A stretch of 5,281 nt of DNA, from IMG/VR virus record IMGVR_UViG_2548876700_000007; one strand, 5' to 3'. Of this stretch, positions 1,683 to 2,062 are shown one piece after another. Numbering within the stretch: the first letter of the stretch is position 1; the number at the start of each line of letters is the position of its first letter. Both the position numbers and the translations under genes were made by a program. This stretch comes from a virus (Duplodnaviria > Heunggongvirae > Uroviricota > Caudoviricetes). The notes under the pieces are model-generated. The model was not told the origin of the DNA and did not search any database. It saw only the letters and a program-made list of their open reading frames with translations.

Positions 1683-2062
1683 TTATTCAGTTCTGGATTT
1701 TGTCGCCCTGCGTATCCGCGCTTTCGCGTTACGCTCAATCTGAATTAACTTTTCTATATTTTTCCGCCTTTCCTGTTCCTCCTGGCGCAATAGCCTTACA
1801 TCATCTGCCAGTCTGGTTTCTCTTTTCGCCACAGAGAGCATCCAGTCAAACGGCTCCACAACTGCACCGCAGATTTTACAGCGGACCTGACGCTCTTTTT
1901 CGTCAACCCGAACAGAGGCGTGATGGCAATATGGTCTTTCCGATGGCTCATAAAGAAAATTAACCTGATTACGAGGGTTGGATTTGCCCCTATATTTCCA
2001 TGCTCCTCTCCTTTGATGCGAATGCCAGCGGTAATTGAAGCCTGATAGCTAATTTCACTCAC
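1683..2062 (-). CDS. uncertain-frame coding region: possible frameshifted, recoded or start-ambiguous small gene (Cys/His motif plus basic helical tail)
   Basis: Seen: (a) frame A opens with GTG at 2062..2060 overlapping the O-like gene's TGA stop (GTGA) and runs to 1796; (b) the -1 frame (frame C) is open 2048..1683 and encodes ...PYCHHASVRVDEKERQVRCKICGAVVEPFDWMLSVAKRETRLADDVRLLRQEEQERRKNIEKLIQIERNAKARIRRATKSRTE, with no canonical start before GTG 1859 or ATG 1841; (c) a strong SD AAGGAG (2013..2008) plus ATG (2001..1999) sits in the third frame and hits TAG after 3 codons. True frame and boundaries are unresolved. Confidence 0.35.

Follow-up and report, generated by a model that had tools for sequence, protein, structure and literature searches.

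A vestigial IS2 terminus within a small conserved gene of a lambdoid prophage in Escherichia coli

Introduction

Why should a strong Shine-Dalgarno (SD) sequence and an ATG in a lambdoid prophage open a reading frame of only three codons, beside a much longer and protein-like frame that has no start codon at all? The question arises at positions 1683-2062 of the 5,281-nt stretch of DNA analysed here, to which we refer throughout as the window, and which is the reverse complement of the whole 5,281-bp draft contig AIAD01000115.1 (GCA_000446095.2). An initial annotation, made from the letters of the sequence, had described two overlapping frames on the minus strand immediately after a gene labelled as O-like. 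Frame A begins with a GTG (2062-2060) that overlaps the upstream TGA (2061-2059), and is open to 1796, giving 88 aa. The second, in the -1 register and hereafter the long frame, is open over 2048..1683 and encodes ...YCHH...CKIC... followed by a basic helical tail; it has no usable start, the first ATG, GTG or TTG being the GTG at 1859. In the third frame, the strong SD GGAGAGGAG (2011-2003) is followed by ATG GAA ATA TAG (2001-1990). Finally, the heptamer GAAAAAG occurs at 1901-1895 and is read G-AAA-AAG in frame A, such that a -1 slip would yield the junction ...LTKK-ERQVRCKICG... and so fuse frame A to the long frame. All of these features are present as they were described.

Several explanations had been proposed for their coincidence: a programmed -1 frameshift resembling that of dnaX, a 1-nt indel within a run of A (the result of either pseudogene formation or sequencing error), and initiation at an internal start codon. 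Here we evaluate these by comparing the window with complete E. coli genomes, with the protein family to which the long frame belongs, and with the termini of insertion sequences.

Results

The prophage and its replication gene

The prophage is an E. coli one of the Rac/lambdoid type, and the window contains its immunity-replication-nin region. A divergent LexA-family repressor is followed on the minus strand by Cro, a YdaT-family protein, a replication-initiator-like ORF, the region under study, and several small nin-region genes together with a DUF551 protein. The sequence is 100% identical to E. coli O55:H7 CB9615 and its relatives except for a 734-bp deletion and the outermost 53 nt (5229-5281), which are unlike those genomes; an ORF in the latter segment runs off the contig end, and the mismatch reflects either a mosaic boundary or a contig-end effect. 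Two other ORFs on the minus strand deserve mention. At 24-893, a single 289-aa ORF with DUF551 is split by PGAP, in the identical sequence of CB9615, into a 'pseudogene missing C-terminus' and a distinct DUF551 gene of 112 aa; the single ORF may represent a DUF551 gene that has been fused or duplicated, or else reflect an artefact of annotation. At 4715-5206, a 163-aa ORF annotated only as hypothetical has an N-terminal half of coiled-coil type and a four-cysteine motif, CPKC...CLYC, and is a second small zinc-ribbon-plus-helix protein of the same prophage.

The upstream gene is O-like in part. Its 231-aa ORF (2059..2754, minus strand) is an in-frame chimera with a junction at 2197/2198, in which residues 1-186 do belong to a replication initiator, of 321 aa when entire, while the last 45 residues are those of a DUF977/Ren-like protein. 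The deletion responsible removed 734 bp relative to CB9615 (2767-3500 of that locus, L001) at a 2-nt microhomology, TT, and was found in none of the complete E. coli genomes and in four other public contigs. The chimeric initiator has lost its C-terminal domain and no helicase-loader gene comes after it, and hence the replication module of this prophage looks defective. Within the initiator coding region, at 2295-2410, a 23-nt repeat that is palindromic internally (CATCGGGCCATTTTGACCCGATG, with variants) occurs four times, spaced at 24, 46 and 23, and its copies look like origin iterons, by analogy with those in lambda O; a second repeat pair, of 14 nt, is found at 2253-2290.

The intact gene

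The orphan SD-ATG at 2001 is the true start of a true gene, of which the long frame is the body. The 30 nt from the SD through ATGGAAATA (2022..1993) are matched in 1,482 of 5,426 complete E. coli genomes, the great majority at 100% identity, and only 11 of these 1,482 continue past ATGGAAATA as the window does. At the intact loci examined (L002 and L003), and in the split gene of L005 that is described below, the SD-ATG opens one gene of 357 nt encoding a protein of 118 aa (WP_000403783.1) with the N-terminus MEIKPEDELSNIVLFPVKEDDPRNQVNFLYEPSERPYCHH.... The long frame is this protein from residue 21 onwards, with 0 nucleotide differences over 296 nt, and its earlier description as protein-like was well founded, for it is the conserved frame of the 118-aa gene. 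Accordingly, the SD at 2003..2011 belongs to the ancestral gene and is still intact, and codons 21-118 with the TAA are retained at 1683..1978 (minus strand) as the body of a pseudogene from which the start codon and conserved N-terminus are missing. The remnant preserves both halves of a putative zinc-binding site, namely the codons for Cys38-His39-His40 (1920..1928), the first knuckle, and for Cys54-Lys-Ile-Cys57 (1869..1880), the second.

The gene belongs to PHROG 1621. The phrog_1621 profile matches residues 22-120 of the long-frame translation from the window with an E value of 6.6e-47, and the intact allele with 1.5e-56. Members occur as a single ORF of 113-132 aa in Escherichia, Shigella, Salmonella, Klebsiella, Kluyvera, Yokenella, Serratia, Yersinia, Erwinia and Pluralibacter, and their genes are nin-region genes, preceded by DUF977, NinG, RusA or YbcO and followed by YlcG and the Q antiterminator. 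They share an N-terminal M..E..ELSN.V.FP motif, invariant C38, H40, C54 and C57, and a nearly invariant C-terminal tail, IEKLIQIERNAKARIR, which is the most conserved part of the family. In two Salmonella loci (L012 and L013, 1778-4001), approximately 2.2 kb without called genes lies between the DUF977 gene and the PHROG-1621 homologue.

The predicted product consists of a C-x-H...C-x2-C zinc-ribbon knuckle and then one long basic helix, and an AlphaFold model of the intact protein (pLDDT 73) has a disordered N-terminus, a β-hairpin knuckle and one helix of 55 residues. The 118-aa protein bears a resemblance, and only that, to the TFIIB zinc ribbon (Pfam PF08271), scoring 21.5 bits where the cut-off is 29. 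A Foldseek search of the model against PDB and BFVD returned nothing below an E value of 0.3 (the best hit was 1pft, at 0.39), and sequence searches of NCBIfam, PADLOC and PDB with the intact protein gave no matches. From its motifs and modelled fold, the intact protein may be a small zinc-stabilised factor of the early or delayed-early region that binds nucleic acid or protein, and it is probably oligomeric through its helix.

An IS2 terminus replaces the start of the gene

Alignment of the window with the intact gene reveals that, after ATGGAAATA, 14 nt (TAGGGGCAAATCCA) stand in place of 52 nt, a net loss of 38 bp by which the reading frame is shifted. The source of the replacement is IS2. 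Read on the minus strand, window positions 2000..1979 agree at 22/22 positions with the outermost nucleotides of the right inverted repeat (IRR) of IS2, where 0 such matches are expected by chance in the window, and this remnant recurs with 100% identity at the ends of elements annotated as 'IS3-like element IS2' in more than 2,000 genomes, K-12 among them. The published IRR of 41 bp reads TTAAGTGATAACAGATGTCTGGAAATATAGGGGCAAATCCA (PMC3299598), and its last 22 nt are TGGAAATATAGGGGCAAATCCA. Only the 14 nt at 1992-1979 are unambiguously foreign, because the remaining 8-mer, TGGAAATA at 2000-1993, is at once native gene sequence and IRR, and this microhomology would be the deletion joint. A complete IS2 of 1,331 bp in locus L004 ends ...GTCTGGAAATATAGGGGCAAATCCA, and its transposase coding sequence terminates at 1811, inside ...CTGGAAATATAG. 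By this correspondence, the TAG that closes the mini-ORF ATG GAA ATA TAG (MEI*, 1990..2001, minus strand) is the stop codon of the IS2 transposase, preceded by the first three codons of the ancestral gene.

The match to IS2 ends exactly where native sequence resumes (ACCCTCGTAAT...). The intact allele reads GATG-ACCCT-CGT at this point, and in the window the native ACCCT (1974..1978, minus strand) abuts the IS2 tip, suggesting that it is the 5-bp target of the element, with one copy left. No fragment of the IS2 left end (IRL) was found in the window. The identity of the remnant and its junctions can be read directly from these comparisons, as can the intact allele and the conservation of its family.

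The scar junction is present in 11 of the 5,426 complete E. coli genomes, representing several lineages, and in four further assemblies and one metagenome contig. Carriers include O55:H7 CB9615, RM12579, DEC5A, DEC5D and TB182A; 2013C-4465 and FDAARGOS_946; and two dog isolates, a pig isolate and EPSSH018. All 11 complete genomes have exactly the length of the window at the junction; an in-frame short allele such as MEYRGKSNPRNQ... was sought and none was seen among them, and no carrier, whether complete genome, further assembly or metagenome contig, has a 1-nt length variant. In CB9615, PGAP annotates the equivalent of 1985..1683 as a pseudogene, 'incomplete, missing N-terminus'.

A history of insertion and deletion

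We conclude, with a probability of roughly 0.93, that a small conserved lambdoid-prophage gene was inactivated recently in this region, and that insertion of IS2 and a subsequent deletion made it a pseudogene. Its pseudogene status is already flagged by RefSeq in CB9615; what is identified here is the cause, IS2 insertion with microhomology-associated deletion. The element (1,331 bp) would have inserted at ACCCT, 57 nt into the gene and with its transposase co-directional with the gene, producing an intermediate with the junctions GAGGATGACCCT to TAGACTGGCC on one side and ATGTCTGGAAATATAGGGGCAAATCCA to ACCCTCG on the other. A deletion of 1,374 bp would then have occurred between two copies of TGGAAATA, one in the start region of the gene (A-TGGAAATA-AAACC) and the other 22 nt from the right tip of IS2, by which IS2 would have lost 1,309 nt and the gene 52 nt, together with one copy of the target duplication. 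Left over would be the SD-ATG-GAA-ATA, the last 14 nt of IS2 with the transposase TAG, and the remainder of the gene, its frame displaced by one base. As a result of such a history the SD-ATG would be orphaned and end after three codons, the real frame would be without a start, and frame A, a meaningless frame normally of 27 codons, would now extend to 88.

When these two steps were carried out in silico, inserting IS2 into the intact allele with a 5-bp duplication of ACCCT and then deleting 1,374 bp, the product was identical to window 2062..1900 at 163/163 positions. A single copy of the presumed target duplication ACCCT survives in the window, and so the 5-bp duplication is not visible for the window's own event. 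The intermediate, with a complete IS2 at ACCCT in the same orientation, was not found among the 5,426 complete E. coli genomes or in collections of genome and metagenome contigs; this is not decisive, because the allele may be extinct or unsampled. We infer the order of events from the sequence that is left, and the mechanism of deletion, whether slippage or strand switching at the microhomology, from the joint.

An independent insertion of IS2 has occurred in the same PHROG-1621 gene in strain B2.3 (L005, NZ_CM185023.1, 205-1540), which is split by a complete element. This copy is flanked by a CCCTC target duplication, 1 bp from the junction in the window, and its orientation is opposite to that inferred for the window insertion; PGAP designates the part of the gene downstream of IS2 as a pseudogene missing its N-terminus. 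The PHROG-1621 gene is, therefore, a demonstrable target of IS2 with a 5-bp duplication, and because it has been hit twice within 1 bp and in opposite orientations, ACCCT(C) may be a hotspot or local target preference of the element.

How the element was lost admits more than one route. Imprecise or 'nearly precise' excision of Tn10 and Tn5 takes the form of deletions between short direct repeats. Elements that transpose by copy-out-paste-in are known to be lost through deletions at short microhomologies, some of them intruding into the IS, and this type of excision has been linked to IEE in EHEC (bioRxiv 10.1101/2023.06.07.543989). IS2 itself uses the copy-out-paste-in pathway, with the IRR as the active donor end (PMC3299598), and the scar allele occurs in the O55:H7 lineage, a relative of EHEC. 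It is possible, though we hold to it only tentatively, that the deletion was an abortive transposition, with strand switching at the microhomology during copy-out, perhaps helped by IEE, in place of later replication slippage. However, the 8-nt microhomology is longer than the 2-4 nt associated with loss of ISApl1 and the 4-6 nt of IEE end-joining substrates (bioRxiv 10.1101/2023.06.07.543989), and it fits plain slippage equally well. Literature searches on IEE in O55:H7 returned no results.

Alternative explanations

Among the explanations first put forward, that of a pseudogene is borne out by the IS2 scar, the missing start and the PGAP call: there is no in-frame start before 1859 and the N-terminal ~20 residues have been replaced. 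The 1-nt indel in the A-run with which it was associated gives way to a larger lesion that costs 38 bp net, 52 nt of gene having been exchanged for 14 nt of an IS2 terminus. Nor does sequencing error survive the recurrence of an identical junction in 11 complete genomes, four further assemblies and one metagenome contig. With its 5,281 bp, the window is a short contig from a draft assembly, and an error of sequencing or assembly in a genome that really carries the intact gene might be suspected on that account, but the complete genomes were sequenced independently and a structured exchange of 52 for 14 nt with an IS2 end is not a homopolymer miscount, so that we regard the idea as scarcely credible. 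More can be said for a shortened product. Initiation at the GTG at 1859 (58 aa) or the ATG at 1841 (52 aa) would give the coiled-coil tail by itself, which might keep a function or acquire one, for instance as a dominant-negative partner of intact paralogues encoded by other prophages in the cell; both ORFs exist and a gene caller predicted the 52-aa one in public contigs, the tail is the part of the family under strongest conservation, the remnant shows no further decay, and in many of these genomes the gene is found at several places, up to 7 per genome. We nevertheless think this unlikely, given that neither start has a good SD (GGAG lies 12 nt before ATG 1841, and there is none before GTG 1859), that no promoter-like site was found in 1600-2200, that a recent lesion predicts zero divergence equally, and that the product would be without the invariant zinc knuckle. 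Judged from its reading frames, the window cannot supply the full protein and could yield at most a helix fragment of 52-58 aa from weak internal starts; having no start codon, the remnant is presumably not expressed. Two other ways into the long frame were considered and rejected. For reinitiation after MEI*, the long frame contains no ATG, GTG, TTG, CTG, ATT or ATA from 1990 to 1860. For a prfB-like +1 frameshift at ATA-TAG-G, the long frame being +1 of the ATG frame, AUA cannot re-pair on UAU, and the arrangement is an artefact of IS2 that is absent from intact alleles.

A programmed -1 frameshift, in which translation from the GTG would proceed along frame A and slip on G-AAA-AAG (1901-1895) into the long frame to make a fusion protein, is very improbable. 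Its geometry is right, for a -1 slip does join the two frames, and the lysine codons AAA-AAG are known slippery sequences in E. coli, as at dnaX-type sites. Yet the homologues have one uninterrupted conserved ORF with 4-12 stops in each of the other frames, and GAAAAAG is not preserved beyond the E. coli allele, being absent from the corresponding site of the Serratia, Salmonella and Klebsiella homologues. In the intact allele, the 27 codons of frame A (...HGNKTRG*) end 80 nt short of the heptamer, and hence no such fusion would have been possible in the ancestral gene; frame A reaches the heptamer in the window because the scar removed its stop. In the true frame the heptamer (1895..1901, minus strand) is part of GAC GAA AAA GAG (Asp-Glu-Lys-Glu), an ordinary coding sequence at residues that vary within the family (NEHDR, NEQDR, SEQQR and others). 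The motif is G-AAA-AAG and not A-AAA-AAG, departing from the X-XXY-YYZ pattern; with G as its first base, the P-site AAA would become GAA, a first-position mismatch, and only the A-site lysine tRNA re-pairs. Upstream, ...CTGTTCGGGTTGAC has no SD-like element, and the downstream fold (-23.9 kcal/mol, z -1.27) is equalled by 19 of 200 shuffles and has a stem that starts inside the heptamer. GAAAAAG is not enriched: the window has 4 copies against 1.69 expected, a frequency that is statistically unremarkable (at least 4 in 18 of 200 shuffles). The fusion would moreover omit C38 and H40 (1928-1920, upstream of the slip site), thereby destroying the zinc site. Past residue 23, frame A resembles no protein family, and a Pfam search with it gave no hit. 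On this comparison with homologues, programmed frameshifting as a conserved, selected mechanism is refuted. There is a slim chance that the accidental ORF of 88 codons (1796..2062, minus strand), lengthened by the scar, is translated all the same, alone or with occasional -1 slippage at AAA-AAG onto the conserved basic helix; since its GTG overlaps the upstream stop (GTGA), it is plausibly translationally coupled, and if it is made, the product would be a new protein owing its origin to the scar of an excised IS.

As a separate observation, within the first 27 codons of frame A (1982-2062, minus strand), residues 2-23 give E values of about 1e-13 against two tiny PHROGs, 37408 and 19884. Some phage genomes thus have an annotated mini-ORF that begins at this GTG of GTGA, in the 57-nt spacer separating the DUF977 gene from the 118-aa gene, and these PHROGs are probably over-annotated mini-ORFs.

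Discussion

The outcome for recoding at this locus is a clean negative, in that an apparent signal composed of overlapping frames, an orphan SD-ATG and a slippery heptamer is most probably the footprint of a vanished insertion sequence. Before frameshift hypotheses are entertained in such cases, intact alleles should be compared and any 'foreign' bases tested against IS termini. The locus documents a naturally occurring scar of IS2 excision, joined at a microhomology of 8 nt, and the second, independent IS2 hit 1 bp away is possibly of interest for understanding target choice by IS2 and the loss of insertion sequences. Taken with the 734-bp deletion in the replication gene, the IS2 scar indicates that a prophage of the O55:H7 type is decaying.

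In comparison with IS2 itself, a member of the IS3 family, the scar retains the last 22 nt of the IRR with the transposase stop, and abuts a target resembling those at which complete elements are inserted, ACCCT in L004 and CCCTC in B2.3. It differs in that 22 of 1,331 bp are left, with no transposase and no IRL, and should be considered a fossil and not an element. The long frame likewise keeps all four Cys/His residues and the IEKLIQIERNAKARIR tail of PHROG 1621 proteins of the WP_000403783.1 type, whereas the start codon and the conserved N-terminal ~20 residues are missing. In common with the dnaX site, where an SD precedes A-AAA-AAG and a hairpin follows it, the heptamer has an AAA-AAG in the incoming frame and a -1 frame that is open downstream, but its first base is G, it has no stimulators, no conservation and no ancestral gene in the 0 frame, and, unlike the dnaX site, the arrangement exists only through the scar.

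A close parallel is with the microhomology-bounded loss of ISApl1, IS30 and IS629, including loss enhanced by IEE. In those excisions, as in the scar, the joint lies at a short direct repeat, of which one copy is in the flanking DNA and one inside the terminal inverted repeat, and a short fragment of the IS end stays behind in a target gene that has been inactivated. The present case is distinguished by the element, which is IS2, by a microhomology of 8 nt, and by the loss of 52 nt of the host gene as well.
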